Shown here in pieces: positions 1,963 through 8,163 of a stretch of 8,163 nucleotides of DNA; the first letter of the stretch is position 1; every line of letters starts with the position of its first letter. This stretch comes from a virus (Duplodnaviria; Heunggongvirae; Uroviricota; Caudoviricetes). The translations under genes and the position numbers were made by a program. The DNA lies in IMG/VR virus record IMGVR_UViG_2681813321_000020; one strand, written 5' to 3'. Under the pieces are notes generated by a model. The model saw nothing but the letters and a program-made list of their open reading frames with translations. It had not been told where the DNA came from and did no database searches.

Positions 1963-3501
1963 TTATTCAGTCGGCAGTGCTACGCGCCAGGGGAGCAGTT
2001 CGCCGACCCGGTTTATCGGCCAGTCGGCTATGACGTCAAGGACATAGCGGAGGTAGCTTTCTGGCTCCACTCCGTTCAGTTTGCACGTCCCGATCAGGCT
2101 GTACAGCAGCGCTCCCCGCTCTCCTCCATGATCCGAACCGAAGAACAGGTAGTTTTTGCGGCCCAGACTGACCATCCGCAACGCATTTTCAGCGATGTTA
2201 TTGTCCGCCTCAGCCCAGCCATCATCTGCATAGTACGTCAGCGCCGGCCACTGGTTCAGGGCGTATGCGAACGCTTTCGCCAGTTCTGAGTGTCGCGACA
2301 GGGTTTTCATCTTTTCACGCAGCCAGCTTTCCAGGGATTTCAGCAGCGGTTTCGTTTTCAACTGACGTTCGGCAAGGCGCTGCTCCGCCGTCATTCCCCT
2401 TATCTCTGCCTCGATGGCGTACAGTTCGCCGATCCGTTTCAGCGCTTCCTCCGTCAGGGCTGACGGGGTGCGAACGTGCACATCGTGGATTTTACGGCGG
2501 GCGTGAGCCCAACAGGCGGCTTCCGTTATCCGGCCATCCCGGTACAGCTCGTTGAACCCGGCGTATGCATCCGCCTGCAGTACACCACTGAACCCCGCAA
2601 GATGGGTCTGCGGATGGATGCCTTTTCTGTCCGGGCTGTAAGCGAACAACACCGCCGGCGCCAGCGTTGACCCGGCGTTACGGTCGTCACGAACGTAGGT
2701 CCATAACCGCCCGGTCTTCGTTTTCTTATTGCCTGGCAACAGCACCGGGACAGGCGTGTCATCAGCATGGAGCTTACCGTCAGTCAGCACATAGTCCTGA
2801 AGCGCTTCTTCCAGCGGTGACAGTAGCCGGCAGCATGCATCCACCCAGCCCGACAGCAGTGAACGACTCAGCTCCACGCCCTGGCGGCCGTACATTTCAG
2901 ACTGGCGGTACAGCGGGGTGTGCTCTGCATACTTTGAGATCAGCACGCGGGCCAGCAGCCCCGGTCCTGCGATACCCCGCTCGATGGGCCGTGAAGGCGC
3001 GGGGGCCTGCACGATGGCATCGCACTGAGTACAGGCATGCTTTTCACGTACAGTCCGGATAACCCGGAAGGCGCTGCGCATCAACTCCAGCTGTTCGGCG
3101 GCATCCTCACCCAGATAGCTCAGTGAGCCTCCACATTCCGGGCAGCATGATGCTGCCGGCAGCAGCCGTTTTTCATCGCGGGGGAGTGATTCGGGGAACG
3201 GTTTGCGGGTGCGGGTTTGACGCAGCGGGCGCTGCACGGCCGGGTCGTCAACCCGACCGGTAAGGGTATCACTTTCTTTCTGAAGTGCCTTCAGGTCAGC
3301 TTCCATCTGTGCGATACGACGGGAGACTTTTTCGGAGCGGCTGCCGAAGTTCATCCGGCGCAGCTTATCCAGCTGTGCCTGCAGATGGTCTATTTCGCGT
3401 TCACGCTCGTTCAGCTTTTCCAGCAGGGCACGGTTCAGCGCCTCCTGTTCGGCAAGGAGACGTTTCAGTGCATTGATATCGTCAGGAAGTGAGCTGCTCA
3501 T
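1963..3501 (-). CDS. tnpC: IS66-family transposase TnpC (512 aa)
   Basis: N-terminal leucine-zipper-like region ([36 protein letters not shown]), zinc-finger-like CCPECGG...CTQC, and a large DDE-type catalytic region. Size and position after tnpB are typical. Confidence 0.93.
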
Positions 3502-3549: not shown

Positions 3550-3897
3550 TTACAACATAGTCAGGGACGTAAGCAGTCTTTTAGGCTGCCGCCAGTCGAT
3601 ACCTTCCAGCAGCATCGCCAGCTGTGCCGGTGTGAGGAACACTTTGCCATCCCGGGCTGACGGCCAGGCGAAGCGGCCGCGCTCCAGCCGTTTGGTCAGC
3701 AGACACAGTCCATCGCCGGTAGACCAGAGGAGCTTTACCTGACTGCCATTACGCCCACGGAAGATAAAAACGTGACCTGACATCGGATCGTCTTTCAGCG
3801 TCGTCTGCACCTTTGCCGCCAGGCCGTTGAAGCCGTTTCTCATATCGGTGATGCCAGCGACCAGCCAGATCTTTGTCCCTGATGGTAATGGGATCAA
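3550..3897 (-). CDS. tnpB: IS66-family accessory protein TnpB (Orf2), 115 aa
   Basis: Translation MIPLPSGTKIWLVAGITDMRNGFNGLAAKVQ... matches the conserved IS66 Orf2 family. Its start overlaps the tnpA stop (ATGA). Confidence 0.88.
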   Translation of the reverse strand: MIPLPSGTKIWLVAGITDMRNGFNGLAAKVQTTLKDDPMSGHVFIFRGRNGSQVKLLWSTGDGLCLLTKRLERGRFAWPSARDGKVFLTPAQLAMLLEGIDWRQPKRLLTSLTML

Positions 3898-4298
3898 CGT
3901 TTGAGCTCCCGTATCAGCAGGTTCAGGATATTTTCGCTGATGGCACCATTCAGACGGAGTGATCCGTGCCGGAACGTCACTTCACAGCTGATATTGAGTG
4001 ATTCAGGTGTCGCAGCAGCTACAGGTTGTGACCGGGGGGAGGTTGTAGGGACAACATCTTCGGCATCAAGTGTTATCGGGAGCAGCTCAGGCACGTTGTT
4101 TTCTGTTGTTGAAGGAGGACGTAGTTTTCCTTCGCGCCAGTACTGGCGCCACTTGAACAGCAAATTATCGTTGATCCCATGCTCACGAGCGAGTTGCGCT
4201 ACGGAGAGCTCTGGTCGATGCGAGAGTTCAACCATTTTGATTTTGAACTCAACGGGATAATTAGGGCTTTTTTTACGCACTGCGGTTAATGATTTCAT
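3894..4298 (-). CDS. tnpA: IS66-family TnpA (Orf1; IS3-type HTH transposase-accessory protein), 134 aa
   Basis: HTH region ELSVAQLAREHGINDNLLFKWRQYWREG is typical of IS3/IS66 OrfA proteins. First gene inside the IS end. Confidence 0.85.
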   Translation of the reverse strand: MKSLTAVRKKSPNYPVEFKIKMVELSHRPELSVAQLAREHGINDNLLFKWRQYWREGKLRPPSTTENNVPELLPITLDAEDVVPTTSPRSQPVAAATPESLNISCEVTFRHGSLRLNGAISENILNLLIRELKR

Positions 4299-4350
4299 GG
4301 ATAGCGTCCACCATATTTGGTGTCCACTATTCTCTCAGGAATTTCAGGAT

Positions 4351-4379
4351 CTGCCAGACGGTGCTGAGACGACGCTTAC
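4351..4379. repeat. IS66-family terminal inverted repeat (tnpA-proximal end)
   Basis: Ends in ...gacgcttac, the reverse complement of the GTAAGCG terminus at 1926. Confidence 0.5.
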
Positions 4380-4978
4380 AGCTGCCGGCAGCCGGAGAGG
4401 CTGCTGCGCAGGGCTGGAGCATTAAGGATGGCGGAATTCAGTTGTCAGATGGTGTATTTAAGATCACCAAGCAGAGCAATAAAACCTGGTCCCTGACGCA
4501 TCCGGTGGATGACGCAATTACCCTGCTGACACAGGGCGGCAGACTGACCTGTAAGTTCCGCCTGTCAGGCGCACTGACCAACAATCAGTTCGGGCTGGGG
4601 ATTTATCTGTATACGGACGCTCCCGTTCCTGATGGTGTGGCGATGACGGGTACCGGTAATCCGTTCCTGATGTCGTACTTCACTCAGACCACTGACGGCA
4701 GAGTGAATCTGATGCATCACAGGAAAGCCGGAAACACGAAGCTGGGGGAGTTCGGCGATTACGGTAACGACTGGCAGACGCTGGAGCTGGTGTTCACCGC
4801 CGGCAGTGCCACGGTTACTCCGAAACTGAATGGAGTGGCTGGCCCGGCATTCCAGGTTATAAAAGACAGTCTGACACTGGGACTGAATGCGCTGACGCTG
4901 ACGGATGTTACAAAAAATGCAGCGTATGGCGTTGAGATAGAAAGTCTGATGCTGGAGATAAATGCACCGGCAGCATAA
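4380..4978 (+). pseudogene. 3' fragment of a prophage late-region gene, truncated at its 5' side by the IS66 element (same gene as 1..215)
   Basis: The frame is open from the IS boundary to TAA at 4976-4978 and encodes a beta-rich, lectin-like C-terminal domain. The ORF-track start at 4289 lies inside the IS, so the first 30 codons are IS-derived, not native. Confidence 0.6.
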
Positions 4979-4980
4979 TA

Positions 4981-5273
4981 AAAAAAGCCAGCGACTGACC
5001 TGAAAAAGAAGACGCTGGCTAAAAGGCCTTATATGTTTGTAGAGACTTATTTTTCACAGACAGCAATGATGCCTGTCAATATATTATCAATATGCGGATT
5101 GTTTCAGTTACAGATGCCTTATTAAGGAAAAAAACAGCCAGCACTGACTTTCGGTGGAGAGGTGCTGGCTCAAAAGGATAGATGTACTTCACATGTTGCT
5201 TCTATATGGCAGTACATTTTCTGACAGACAGTGACGGATGTTGTCAAGATATTGTGTCATTTATAACCTGAAT
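4981..5273. repeat. Copy 2 of the two tandem ~145-bp hairpin modules
   Basis: Same sequence as 218..510. Confidence 0.55.
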
Positions 5274-5344
5274 CAGGGGAGGCCGGAATGTTATCTGGCA
5301 TTTTTAGCAGAGCCTGAATGCCATAATCACGGCTCCCGGCGTTG

Positions 5345-5383
5345 GCCGTCAGTGGGTGACACTGGCGGCTTTTTTGTTTTTCT
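5345..5383 (+). terminator. Rho-independent terminator upstream of the holin (copy 2)
   Basis: Same sequence as 582..620. Confidence 0.6.
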
Positions 5384-5425
5384 TTACTTTCATTTTCTGT
5401 CGGCGGTGACGGAGACATACATCAG

Positions 5426-5632
5426 ATGGAAAAAATCACAACAGGTGTGTCATACACCACGTCAGCGGTGGGGACGGGATACTGGTTACTGCAGCTGCTG
5501 GACAAAGTCTCTCCGTCCCAGTGGGTGGCAATAGGTGTGCTGGGAAGTCTGCTGTTTGGCCTGCTGACGTATCTGACAAATCTTTATTTCAAGATTAAAG
5601 AAGATAAGCGTAAGGCTGCGAGAGGTGAATAA
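5426..5632 (+). CDS. S: Phage 21-type pinholin, 68 aa (copy 2)
   Basis: Translation identical to 663..869. Confidence 0.9.
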
Positions 5633-6128
5633 TGTCGCCGTCATTACGCAAGGCTGTTGCAGCTGCTATTGGTGGTGGGGCTGTTGCCATAGCGTCTGTG
5701 CTCATCACTGGTCCAGGTGGTAACGATGGTCTGGAAGGTGTCAGCTACATACCATACAAAGATATCGTTGGCGTATGGACTGTATGTCACGGACACACCG
5801 GAAAAGACATCATGCCCGGTAAAACGTATACCGAAGCAGAATGCAAAGCCCTCCTGAATAAAGACCTTGCCACGGTCGCCAGACAAATTAACCCGTACAT
5901 CAACGTCGATATACCGGAAACAACGCGCGCGCTCTTTACTCGTTCGTTTACAACGTGGGCGCTGGCAATTTCAGAACATCGACGCTTCTTCGCAAAATAA
6001 ACCAGGGCGATATCAAAAGCGCATGTGATCAGCTACGGCGCTGGACATACGCTGGCGGTAAGCAATGGAAAGGGCTGATGACTCGCCGCGAGATTGAGCG
6101 TGAAGTCTGTTTGTGGGGGCAACAATGA
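5632..6128 (+). pseudogene. R: SAR endolysin (R21-like) with the same 1-bp deletion frameshift (copy 2)
   Basis: The frame-0 product is identical to copy 1 (122 aa) and the C-terminal lobe is likewise in the +2 frame. The frameshift site is near 5926-5931. Confidence 0.75.
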
Positions 6129-6562
6129 GCAGGGTAACCGTTATTATCTCCGCTCTGGTTATCTGCATTATCGCCTGCCTGTCATGGGCTGTTAATCTTT
6201 ACCGTGATAACGCCATCGCCTACAAAGAGCAGCGCGATAAAGCCACATCCATCATCGCTGATATGCAGAAGCGGCAACGTGATGTAGCAGAACTTGACGC
6301 CAGATACACAAAGGAGCTTGCTGATGCTAATGCGACTATCGAAAGTCTCCGTGCTGATGTTTCTGCTGGGCGTAAGCGCCTGCAAGTCTTCGCCACCTGT
6401 GCAAAGTCAACGACCGGAGCCAGCAGCATGGGCGATGGAGAAAGCCCAGGACTTACAGCAGATGCTGAACTCAATTATTACCGTCTCCGAGGTGGAATCG
6501 ACAAGATAACCGCGCAGGTTAACTACCTGCAGGAATACATCAGGACGCAGTGCTTAAAATAA
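6125..6562 (+). CDS. Rz: Rz i-spanin (copy 2)
   Basis: Translation identical to 1362..1799. Confidence 0.88.
6324..6509 (+). CDS. Rz1: Rz1 o-spanin lipoprotein (copy 2)
   Basis: Translation identical to 1561..1746. Confidence 0.75.
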
Positions 6563-6599
6563 TTTTAATTTCACTGAAATTTAACAAGTGACTTTCAGG

Positions 6600-6629
6600 A
6601 AAATGCCTCGCAGATGCGGGGCATTTTTG
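6600..6629. terminator. Bidirectional terminator after Rz (copy 2)
   Basis: Same sequence as 1837..1866. Confidence 0.6.
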
Positions 6630-6780
6630 TACCGGTATTTCACCGCGCACCGCAGCGCACAATAAACACCGAACCTGACCCTTTGGAATGGGCCTTTGAG
6701 GATACCAGTTAGTGCTGGCGAGCCTCGGTGGGCTGGTTTCCTATGCGGCAAAGGTTCATTTCAAAGAAGCAGGCAACGCC

Positions 6781-7329
6781 ATGAATGAATTAATTGCGAA
6801 TCATGACTTCGACTTTCGCCAGTTAGTTACCGCAGCAGAAGGTCAACCGGTAACTGACACCTTCCAGATTGCCAGGGCATTTGGTAAACGCCATCAGCAT
6901 GTGATTAGGGCTATTAAATGTTTGAGATGTTCTGAGGAATTCTCGACAACCCATTTTTGGGCCGTCGAGAAAATCAATGACTTAGGTATTTTTGACAAGA
7001 AACAGATTTACTACCGCATGGACTTTAGTGGCTTCGTTATGCTGGTTATGGGATTTAACGGGGCAAAAGCCGATGCTGTTAAAGAAGCCTATATCAATGC
7101 GTTTAACTGGATGTCAGCAGAACTCCGTAAGTACAGCGAAAGTTATGAAGCAGAACGTAACGCCGTAATGCTGGAGTACATGAAAGAGAAGGATGTCGCC
7201 AGCATGTCAGGCCGTCTGCTCAATCGCTGGGGGAGAACGAAAAAACCTCAATTGCTTGCAAAGCTGGAACGTCTGGAGAGACAGGGACAGTTTTTATTAC
7301 CGGGATTCGATAAAGGTATTCAAGCCTGA
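6781..7329 (+). CDS. Phage regulatory protein, Rha family (antirepressor-like), about 182 aa
   Basis: Motif VTDTFQIARAFGKRHQHVIRAIK plus ...FSGFVMLVMGFNGAKADAVKEAYINAFNWM resemble the conserved core of the Phage_pRha family as I recall it. ATG at 6781 chosen over the upstream GTG at 6712 because the family usually starts close to the FGKRH motif; the start is uncertain. Confidence 0.62.
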   Translation: MNELIANHDFDFRQLVTAAEGQPVTDTFQIARAFGKRHQHVIRAIKCLRCSEEFSTTHFWAVEKINDLGIFDKKQIYYRMDFSGFVMLVMGFNGAKADAVKEAYINAFNWMSAELRKYSESYEAERNAVMLEYMKEKDVASMSGRLLNRWGRTKKPQLLAKLERLERQGQFLLPGFDKGIQA

Positions 7330-7516: not shown

Positions 7517-7711
7517 TCATCCATCATCACTTTGGATTGATGTATATGCTCTCTTTTCTGACGTTAGTCTCCGACGGCAGGCTTCAATGACCCAGGCTGA
7601 GAAATTCCCAGACCCTTTTTGCTCAAGAGCGATGTTAATTTGTTCAATCATTTGGTTAGGAAAGCGGATGTTGCGGGTTGTTTTTCTGCGGGTTCTGTTC
7701 TTCGTTGACAT
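7517..7711 (-). CDS. ylcI: Small prophage protein, YlcI-like (DUF3950-type), 64 aa
   Basis: Translation MSTKNRTRRKTTRNIRFPNQMIEQINIALEQKGSGNFSAWVIEACRRRL... closely resembles my recollection of DLP12 YlcI, which also lies just upstream of cos and the terminase gene. The Shine-Dalgarno is weak. Confidence 0.5.
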   Translation of the reverse strand: MSTKNRTRRKTTRNIRFPNQMIEQINIALEQKGSGNFSAWVIEACRRRLTSEKRAYTSIQSDDG

Positions 7712-7849
7712 GAGGTTGCCCCGTATTCAGTGTCGCTGATTTGTATTGTCTGAAGTTGTTTTTACGTTAAGTTGATGCAGATCAATTAATACGATACCTG
7801 CGTCATAATTAATTATTTGACGTGGTTTGATGGCGTAGATGCACGTTGT

Positions 7850-7910
7850 GATATGTAGATGATAATTATTATCATTTTGCGGGTCCTTTCCGGCGATCCG
7901 ACAGGTTACG
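7850..7910. other. cosQ-like region and right-end sequence of a lambda-type genome
   Basis: gatatgtagatgataattattatcattttgcgggtcctttccggcgatccgacaggttacg closely resembles the last bases of the lambda genome, which end in ...CCGACAGGTTACG. Confidence 0.7.
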
Positions 7911-7922
7911 GGGCGGCGACCT
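7911..7922. other. cosN: cosN: 12-nt cohesive-end sequence GGGCGGCGACCT, identical to lambda
   Basis: 7911-7955 (gggcggcgacctcgcgggttttcgctatttatgaaaattttccgg) matches the first 45 nt of the lambda genome as recalled. Divergence begins at 7956. Confidence 0.85.
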
Positions 7923-7959
7923 CGCGGGTTTTCGCTATTTATGAAAATTTTCCGGGATC

Positions 7960-8067
7960 CATGTCCGGTTTCTCTGCAAGTTAACTATATGAAAAATATA
8001 AAAACAGGCTGTCCGTGAACCGGACATGTGCAAAAAACGGACATGTAAACCGGACATGACCGGTTTT
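7960..8067. repeat. cosB: cosB-like terminase-binding region: one inverted copy (7960-7970) and three direct copies (8018-8028, 8037-8045, 8048-8058) of a (A)ACCGGACATG motif flanking an AT-rich segment
   Basis: The repeats are visible directly. The architecture (an inverted site next to cosN, an AT-rich putative bend site, then further sites, about 190 nt before the terminase start) parallels lambda cosB R3-I1-R2-R1, but the repeat sequence differs from the lambda R sites. Confidence 0.6.
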
Positions 8068-8105
8068 GTTGTGATTGTGAGGTGAGAGTTTTTGCGAGGT
8101 GAGGA

Positions 8106-8163
8106 GTGGCTACGCAGACTGAAGTTGCCAGGCATTTAAGTCTGACCGATCGCCAGCTTCGCA
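8106..8163 (+). CDS. Probable 5' end of the terminase small-subunit gene (partial, runs off the window)
   Basis: GTG at 8106 preceded by GAGGTG; translation (M)ATQTEVARHLSLTDRQLR looks HTH-like. The position about 195 nt downstream of cosN matches where Nu1 starts in lambda. Only 19 codons are visible. Confidence 0.3.
   Translation, partial: MATQTEVARHLSLTDRQLR

Follow-up and report, generated by a model that had tools for sequence, protein, structure and literature searches.

A probable lambda-like prophage cos site with a cosB of neither the lambda nor the phage 21 class

An 8,163-nucleotide stretch of Caudoviricetes DNA, IMG/VR record IMGVR_UViG_2681813321_000020 (hereafter the window), very probably carries near its right edge the cos site of a lambda-like prophage, in which a lambda-type cosQ and cosN are joined to a complex cosB of a class that is neither that of lambda nor that of phage 21. 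This reading draws on the sequence architecture of the site, its conservation among relatives, the covariation of the cosB repeats with a residue of the small terminase subunit (TerS) and the predicted fold of the TerS N-terminal domain. Three packaging specificities had been documented by 2015, those of lambda, 21 and N15 (Feiss et al., PMC4669245). Both the R element of the window and TerS residues 1-48 are distinct, so the most likely reading is that the site has a packaging specificity of its own, apart from these three. The pairing of this cosB with its TerS domain is apparently uncharacterised: in the full-text literature no paper was found that contains the repeat or describes the cosB class, a search in which subscription journals were mostly outside the scope and an earlier mention is possible.

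Coordinates were anchored on the cohesive end, so that bp 1 corresponds to window position 7911. The copy of lambda in the DE3 prophage served as the lambda reference and OL657228 as the phage 21 reference; the details of the phage 21 R sites were taken from the GenBank annotation and from PMC4669245. Bp 1-45 (7911-7955) are identical to lambda in 45 of 45 positions and to phage 21 in 41 of 45, and the left flank matches the right end of lambda in 29/30 positions over 30 bp, 56/60 over 60 bp and 202/211 over 211 bp. Over bp 46-195, ungapped identity is 38/150 (25%) to lambda and likewise 38/150 to phage 21. Because identity to both phages drops from bp 46, the alignment indicates a sharp mosaic joint at bp 45/46 (7955/7956). 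The original prediction, made from the letters of the window, had read 7911-7955 as the left end of lambda with its cohesive end, the preceding 60 bp as resembling the lambda right end and the sequence straight after 7955 as divergent. The alignment with the lambda and phage 21 cos regions that it proposed bears out all three points and places a lambda-type cosQ and cosN next to a non-lambda cosB.

Of 15 tabulated relatives, 12 have the cosQ motif GGGTCCT some 30 bp ahead of the predicted end. The motif is absent from the examined stretch in two others, and in the remaining one, a Pseudomonas-type contig, it is present with no lambda-like end after it. Many phages of the lambda class that were deposited recently (Turner, PhiR11, 2H10) match window positions 7700-7955 at 98-99% identity and then go on to a lambda-type Nu1.

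To the right of the joint lie repeats of the element ATGTCCGGTT. Allowing one mismatch at most, five copies were found, all of them in 7960-8066, against 0.39 expected; none of 200 shuffles reached five, and the exact 10-mer occurs in 24 kb of a sister prophage only at the three cosB places. A chance origin of the repeats is ruled out by these figures. The longer form AACCGGACATG has perfect matches at 8018-8028 and 8048-8058, and a perfect inverted one at 7960-7970. An earlier count of three direct copies and one inverted copy was thus essentially right, except that the third 'direct' copy carries a mismatch and a fifth copy, overlapping another at 8055-8065, had been missed. The AT-rich segment that had been noticed among the repeats is the spacer between R3 and R2 (7972-8017), with 35% G+C against 51% for the whole window.

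The arrangement of these elements follows that of known complex cosB sites. In phage 21 the annotation (OL657228) gives R3 at bp 50-65, I1 at 74-86, R2 at 107-122, R1 at 150-166 and gene 1 at 189. The window shares with lambda an identical cosQ, 12-nt cohesive end and bp 1-45, an R3 that begins at bp 50, a site resembling that for integration host factor (IHF) at about bp 72-74, an inverted R2 and a terS that starts at about bp 190-196. The position of the R3 equivalent matches R3 of both phages (bp 50-65). With cosQ, bp 1, R3, I1, R2 and the terS start all within a few bp of their places in lambda and phage 21, the layout supports a cos built on the lambda plan. It differs from lambda in the R element, CGTTTCC(N)TTCT in lambda and ATGTCCGGTT in the window, in the orientation of R1, which is opposite, and in a TerS of 169 residues rather than 181, of which residues 1-48 fall off the Nu1 profile.

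The same arrangement recurs in relatives. Counted from the predicted end, R3 has its CCGGTT at bp 54-57 in all 13 cosQ-anchored relatives, a set drawn from E. coli, Klebsiella, Salmonella, Citrobacter, Enterobacter and metagenomes; terS follows this CCGGTT at distances between 21 and 171 bp. In ten of the 11 enteric relatives a match to YAANNNNTTGATW begins at bp 71-73, on the strand that carries I1 in lambda and phage 21, where I1 starts at bp 74; in four of them the match is 9/9. The window I1 scores at 7/9 of the IHF consensus positions, the same as lambda's own I1. R2 was found at bp 107-109 in 11/11 enteric relatives, and a minus-strand R1 at bp 137-151 in E. coli RMDEC332 and in the Enterobacter and Klebsiella relatives. 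Across nine E. coli lineages R3, I1, R2 and R1 are fixed while the flanking spacer bases vary, and R1 is invariant except for one flanking base. The additional copy at 8035-8045, which reads AAACGGACATG, is degenerate (AATAGACACTA and similar) in PhiR12, O157:H7 and other genomes. Because its CCGG core is broken and the copy is not conserved, it is probably not a functional site.

The window ends within terS, and TerS beyond the window edge was read from RefSeq-annotated genomes that are identical over 7853-8163. The probable terminase start proposed earlier at 8106 coincides with the start annotated there, a GTG that opens a 169-amino acid 'terminase small subunit', and the reading frame is terminase-like as had been expected. 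In the sister genomes terS overlaps a GpA_ATPase/GpA_nuclease gene for the large subunit (TerL), and downstream of terS lie genes for this GpA-type large terminase, gpW, portal, protease, decoration protein and major capsid protein. Within TerS, the Pfam profile Phage_Nu1 (PF07471) covers only residues 49-150, which correspond to positions 62-163 of its 164 (E 1e-18), and residues 1-48 are unmatched by it. Small terminases of lambda, 21, phi80 and N15 align in tblastn only from TerS residue 49-73 on, and a phmmer search of the PDB with TerS, at E up to 10, returned no Nu1 domain and nothing relevant. By sequence, residues 1-48 form a family distinct from Nu1 of lambda, gp1 of phage 21 and gp1 of N15. 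TerS thus combines a different N-terminal family with a Nu1-type body; by analogy with Nu1, the Nu1-like residues 49-150 would hold the oligomerisation and TerL-binding functions.

Comparison of the TerS domain with the Nu1, gp1 and Monarch domains by hhalign gave a probability of 31%, in a register that sets residue i of the window protein on residue i+1 of lambda. An AlphaFold2 model of residues 1-58 (predicted local distance difference test score, pLDDT, 83.6) comprises a strand, helices at 4-10 and 15-22, a wing and a helix at 38-54. The N-terminal domain is thus predicted to have the lambda-type, MerR-like winged helix-turn-helix fold, common to lambda and the window, as is the C-terminal match to Phage_Nu1. 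The predicted recognition helix reads T14-D-R-Q-L-R-R-L-Q-K23. The coordinates of the site, of terS and of the genes to its left are collected in Table 1.

Table 1. Features of the predicted cos region and neighbouring genes (bp 1 = window position 7911)
Feature	Window position	Strand	Remarks
cosQ, GGGTCCT, packaging-termination subsite	7881-7887	+	30 bp before bp 1; sequence and offset as in the annotated phage 21 cosQ (OL657228 42902-42908)
cosN, cohesive-end sequence GGGCGGCGACCT	7911-7922 (bp 1-12)	+	Identical to lambda; predicted cleavage
R3 equivalent, predicted TerS site CATGTCCGGTTT	7960-7971 (bp 50-61)	+	Exact CATGTCCGGTT at 7960-7970 (bp 50-60); invariant in 9 E. coli lineages
I1 equivalent, putative IHF-like site TAACTATATGAAA	7982-7994 (bp 72-84)	-	Inside A+T-rich spacer 7972-8017
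R2 equivalent, minus strand reads CATGTCCGGTT	8018-8029 (bp 108-119; exact 108-118)	-	Inverted relative to R3; conserved in 8/9 E. coli lineages, one single-base variant
Extra imperfect copy, minus strand ACATGTCCGTTT	8035-8046 (one-mismatch match 8035-8045, bp 125-135)	-	Mismatch breaks the CCGG core universal in the family
R1 equivalent	8048-8066		Minus-strand CATGTCCGGTT at 8048-8058 (bp 138-148), overlapped by plus-strand CATGaCCGGTT at 8055-8065 (bp 145-155)
terS start, GTG	8106-8163, runs off the window	+	bp 196; encodes helix 1 and most of the recognition helix (VATQTEVARHLSLTDRQLR...)
Rha/ORF11CD3 regulator gene	6712-7329		Between lysis cassette and cos
DUF3950 (YlcI/YnfO family) gene	7517-7711	-	Between lysis cassette and cos

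A link between the repeats and TerS is indicated by their covariation. A first scan of viral contigs yielded 80 near-identical loci, and diversity was then obtained with divergent queries and exact-protein look-ups; a scan of genome contigs gave four loci only, two of them partial and two of another class. The resulting set comprises 84 distinct combinations of domain and upstream region from 299 loci. The core TCCGGTT was found upstream of terS in all 84, with carriers in Klebsiella, Salmonella, Citrobacter and Enterobacter and among Pseudomonas-phage and metagenomic relatives. TerS residue 20, which relates to window positions 8160-8163, was compared with the base at position -2 of CCGG in the relatives L019-L028 and L110-L299. 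An arginine is accompanied by G (ATGTCCGGTT) at 129 of 130 sites, and Asn, Asp, Thr, Lys or Ser by T (ATTTCCGGTT, ACTTCCGGTT, GCTTCCGGTT; pattern A(T/C)TTCCGGTT) at 63 of 65. The Asp-type proteins P0010 and P0013 are 80% and 76-77% identical to the window TerS, and the Arg-type proteins P0034 and P0036 about 60-63%; with the Asp type the nearer of the two, the covariation follows the helix and not simply whole-protein relatedness. We take it as strong support for the pairing of TerS with these sites, though not as proof, because the counts are not independent evolutionary events.

Two further observations concern the same base. In the +1 register of hhalign, residue 20 corresponds to Asn21 of lambda and Arg21 of phage 21. 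At bp 56 of R3, the base pair known to discriminate between the two phages, lambda has T and phage 21 has G. Lambda itself carries TTTCCGGTT at bp 39-47 (L005 1050-1058), between cosN and R3, which matches the site recognised in the Asp/Asn subclass of this TerS family; at the corresponding place the window reads TTTTCCGGGAT. The lambda sequence may be a coincidence, or it may be a basis for one-way cross-packaging such as the N15 terminase shows on lambda DNA.

A mechanism for the site can be modelled on lambda (PMC4669245, PMC9026076). The two winged helix-turn-helix domains at the N-termini of a TerS dimer would occupy R3 and R2, brought together by an IHF-induced bend, and R1 would add stability. 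TerL, positioned on cosN, would then make the staggered nicks at the 12-nt end, and packaging would start rightwards. On balance, we favour the view that the class constitutes a fourth specificity among lambda-type cohesive-end phages, which would have arisen through the grafting of a foreign winged helix-turn-helix domain, shared with Pseudomonas and Aeromonas phages, and of TCCGGTT sites onto a Nu1-type scaffold. The same view holds that Arg20 as against Asp/Asn20, reading G as against T, splits the class into sub-specificities, and that islands without a terminase exploit the class by means of a whole-cosB copy.

The N-terminal family of the window TerS, MATQxEVAxHLxL[ST]xRQ..., is also found in LPPA33 (Pseudomonas), phiARM81ld (Aeromonas) and vB_EcoM-705R4 (E. 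coli). Full-length identity to the window TerS is 43% for LPPA33, 35% for phiARM81ld, 31.6-32% for other Aeromonas phages and 33% for 705R4. TTCCGGTT motifs were found upstream of terS in LPPA33 and 705R4, where cosB is simple: there is a tandem TTCCGGTTCCGGTT 15-22 bp before terS and no IHF-spaced inverted pair. In relatives of this type residue 20 is Asn or Asp and the site has T, not G. The lambda-type cohesive end is absent in 705R4, and none is recognisable in the LPPA33 stretch examined. Within L010 120-165 and L011 560-600 the tandem reads TTCCGGTTCCGGT, and 705R4 keeps a cosQ-like GGGTCCTTTCCG. From its sequence, the tandem of LPPA33 and 705R4 has the look of a 'simple' form of cosB that uses the recognition element of the window.

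N15 and Monarch show that further pairs of cosB and TerS domain exist in lambda-like cos phages. The Monarch type is tripartite with an IHF site, as is the window. It differs from the window in its R element, GAGGTTGTTGTT, and in a domain that starts MAFLLNKSDMA..., and N15 itself has a single R site. Membership of the window in the N15/Monarch class was rejected: neither GAGGTTGTTGTT nor the N15-type recognition helix is present in it, and both are present in Escherichia albertii NBRC 107761. There (L008 1170-1610), the Monarch/N15-type GGTTGTTGTT stands at R3, R2 and R1 together with an N15-type TerS N-terminus, and the C-terminal part of TerS is 71% identical to the window type. By its sequence this locus is a clear example of a DNA-binding domain swapped together with its cosB. 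A different exchange is seen in E. coli RMDEC332 (L017 1133-1400), which has the same cosB repeats as the window and an identical recognition helix with another cohesive end (about GGGCGGGAGCGG) and another left flank. From this arrangement it follows that cosN and cosB have been exchanged independently.

The window type is widespread in E. coli. Among 5426 complete E. coli genomes, the window cosB type was found in 1185 genomes at 1920 places, about as frequently as the phage 21 type (1225 genomes, 2146 places); the lambda type occupies 5765 places in 4010 genomes. Carriers of the window type hold a median of two and up to four such places, and they include O157:H7, O55:H7, O103, O111 and O121 strains. 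Isolated phages carry it as well: PhiR12_1 to PhiR12_5, with E. coli K-12 and E. coli C as listed hosts, have the window cosB at 95% and TerS at 99.4% identity. The type is also found without a terminase. An island of E. coli JNEC-KY203 (L018 1133-1310 / L029), beside clpS-clpA, has genes for major capsid, head decoration, primase, Icd-like, PerC and SSB proteins but lacks a terminase, and it carries cosQ, cosN, R3, I1, R2 and R1. Homology breaks off within R1, 2 bp past the start of the overlap, and the plus-strand copy is not kept. This suggests a satellite-like island that would be packaged by copying the cosB of a helper and not by a redirecting protein of the Rpp type.

Several observations weigh against our reading of the window as a lambda-plan cos with its own cosB class. 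The covariation counts are phylogenetically non-independent, as noted above, and for all members of the class TerS binding, bending, cleavage and packaging specificity are inferred. The sequence homology of the N-terminal domain to Nu1 is weak (the 31% given by hhalign), and the window I1 agrees with the IHF consensus at only seven of nine positions. The exact copy in R1 has the orientation of R2, and the orientation of R3 is found only in the overlapping copy with one mismatch; in lambda and phage 21, R1 has the same orientation as R3. When the cores are aligned on the shared (A/G)TGTC, R3 lies 3 bp nearer to cosN than in lambda and phage 21, and in lambda shifts of R3 by more than 1-2 bp are harmful (PMC4669245). 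Finally, the prophage looks damaged, and the cos copy in the window may never be used in cis.

The original prediction had proposed a TerS with a DNA-binding specificity different from that of lambda, as in the phage 21 class. If that were so, the repeats would be phage 21-type R elements, TerS an orthologue of gp1, and the phage 21 terminase would package this DNA. Phage 21 does combine a lambda-like cosQ and cosN with another cosB and recognition helix, its layout is that of the window, bp 1-45 are nearly identical, and the R cores have CATGTC in common (CATGTCGGnCC in R2 and R1 of phage 21, CATGTCCGGTT in the window). Beyond these likenesses the two sites part. R3, R2 and R1 of phage 21 are AATCGTGTCGGTACTT, AAGGTCCGACATGAAA and TTTCATGTCGGGCCTTG, with the R elements CGTGTCGGTAC, CATGTCGGACC and CATGTCGGGCC; their consensus, CATGTCGGnCCT, lacks the CCGGTT that is invariant in the window class, and the core is CCGACATG as against CCGGACATG. 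This consensus has a G at both bp 56 and bp 59, and the R3 of the window, CATGTCCGGTTT, does not fit it; single changes at bp 56 and 59 suffice to separate lambda from phage 21 (PMC4669245). The recognition helix of phage 21, PRTIERWQSQ (Glu20, Ser24), corresponds to DRQLRRLQKL in the window. While gp1 aligns with lambda Nu1 over the full length (about 53% over the first 60 residues) and is about 53-54% identical to lambda-class terminases such as that of phi80 over 97-99% of gp1, it aligns with the window TerS only from about residue 50-70 on, that is, with the C-terminal two thirds. A blastn search of 50,697 phage records with the window cosB found only PhiR12_1 to PhiR12_5 and never phage 21. 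With cosB identity at 25%, another repeat core and another TerS N-terminus and recognition helix, membership in the phage 21 class was rejected and is in our estimate highly improbable. The absence of CCGGACATG repeats from the phage 21 cos refutes that part of the prediction; a specificity other than that of lambda still stands as what the sequences would imply.

It could also be argued that the repeats are transcription-factor operators of the terminase operon or of the divergent DUF3950 gene, and that their proximity to cosN is incidental. They do lie in a 395-bp intergenic region upstream of terS, MerR-like winged helix-turn-helix proteins are mostly transcription factors, and the tandem TTCCGGTTCCGGTT of the Pseudomonas-type relatives is just 15-22 bp before terS. 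We nevertheless consider this very unlikely, given that the distance of R3 is constant to the cohesive end (bp 54-57) and variable to the terS start (90-171 bp), that the repeats change together with a TerS residue, and that the order of R3, IHF site and inverted R2 copies the cosB of lambda; moreover, the JNEC-KY203 island, with neither terS nor a downstream late operon, keeps cosQ through R1. A remaining explanation, to which we assign only a small probability, is that of a dead relic, the cos of a decayed prophage that serves no packaging and whose repeats are kept by recent common descent only. The split endolysin of this prophage, the 1925-bp duplication with an IS66-family element upstream (both described below) and a TerL gene that is frameshifted to a pseudogene in a sister genome identical over cos would fit such decay. 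These defects touch this copy only and not the element type, which in isolated phages has the same cosB and in the 1920 places has R sites that are fixed beside drifting spacers. Furthermore, the cos of a defective prophage is usable in trans by a resident relative, and carriers hold a median of two places. A lambda-plan cos with a cosB class of its own thus remains the reading that we prefer.

A terminase can mobilise only those resident prophages, satellites and cosmids that its packaging specificity allows, and several lambda-like prophages are present in enterohaemorrhagic E. coli (EHEC) and in other pathogenic strains of the species. With at least four cosB classes recognised, it can be predicted which defective prophages would be rescued and packaged by a functional one, and which islands would ride along. 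The class would offer a fourth specificity with a very simple and testable protein-DNA code, which could serve orthogonal cosmid or packaging systems and TerS domain-swap studies. Mosaic exchange at cos is already an established idea, as is the existence of alternative cosB classes, and the finding is in this respect incremental and not surprising; it is of relevance to packaging specialists and to students of EHEC prophage interactions.

To the left of cos, the window contains a perfect direct repeat of 1925 bp (1-1925 = 4764-6688), which takes in the genes for holin, endolysin and Rz. The two copies are separated by an insertion sequence (IS) element of the IS66 family (ISEc22-like), whose open reading frames 1963-3501, 3550-3897 and 3894-4298 all run on the minus strand, and by a DUF6645 gene (4289-4978). 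None of the 5426 complete E. coli genomes was found to have the left junction of the repeat, 1925/1926; the repeat arose by a recent duplication associated with the IS element, or else it is an artefact of assembly. Two overlapping open reading frames, 5632-6000 and 5955-6128, make up the split endolysin gene, the one matching the N-terminal and the other the C-terminal half of Pfam Phage_lysozyme (region 5632-6128, copy 869-1365); the gene is frameshifted in both copies, and the prophage is probably lysis-defective. As originally proposed, the site orients the prophage map, whose order is lysis genes, Rha, DUF3950, cos and terS.

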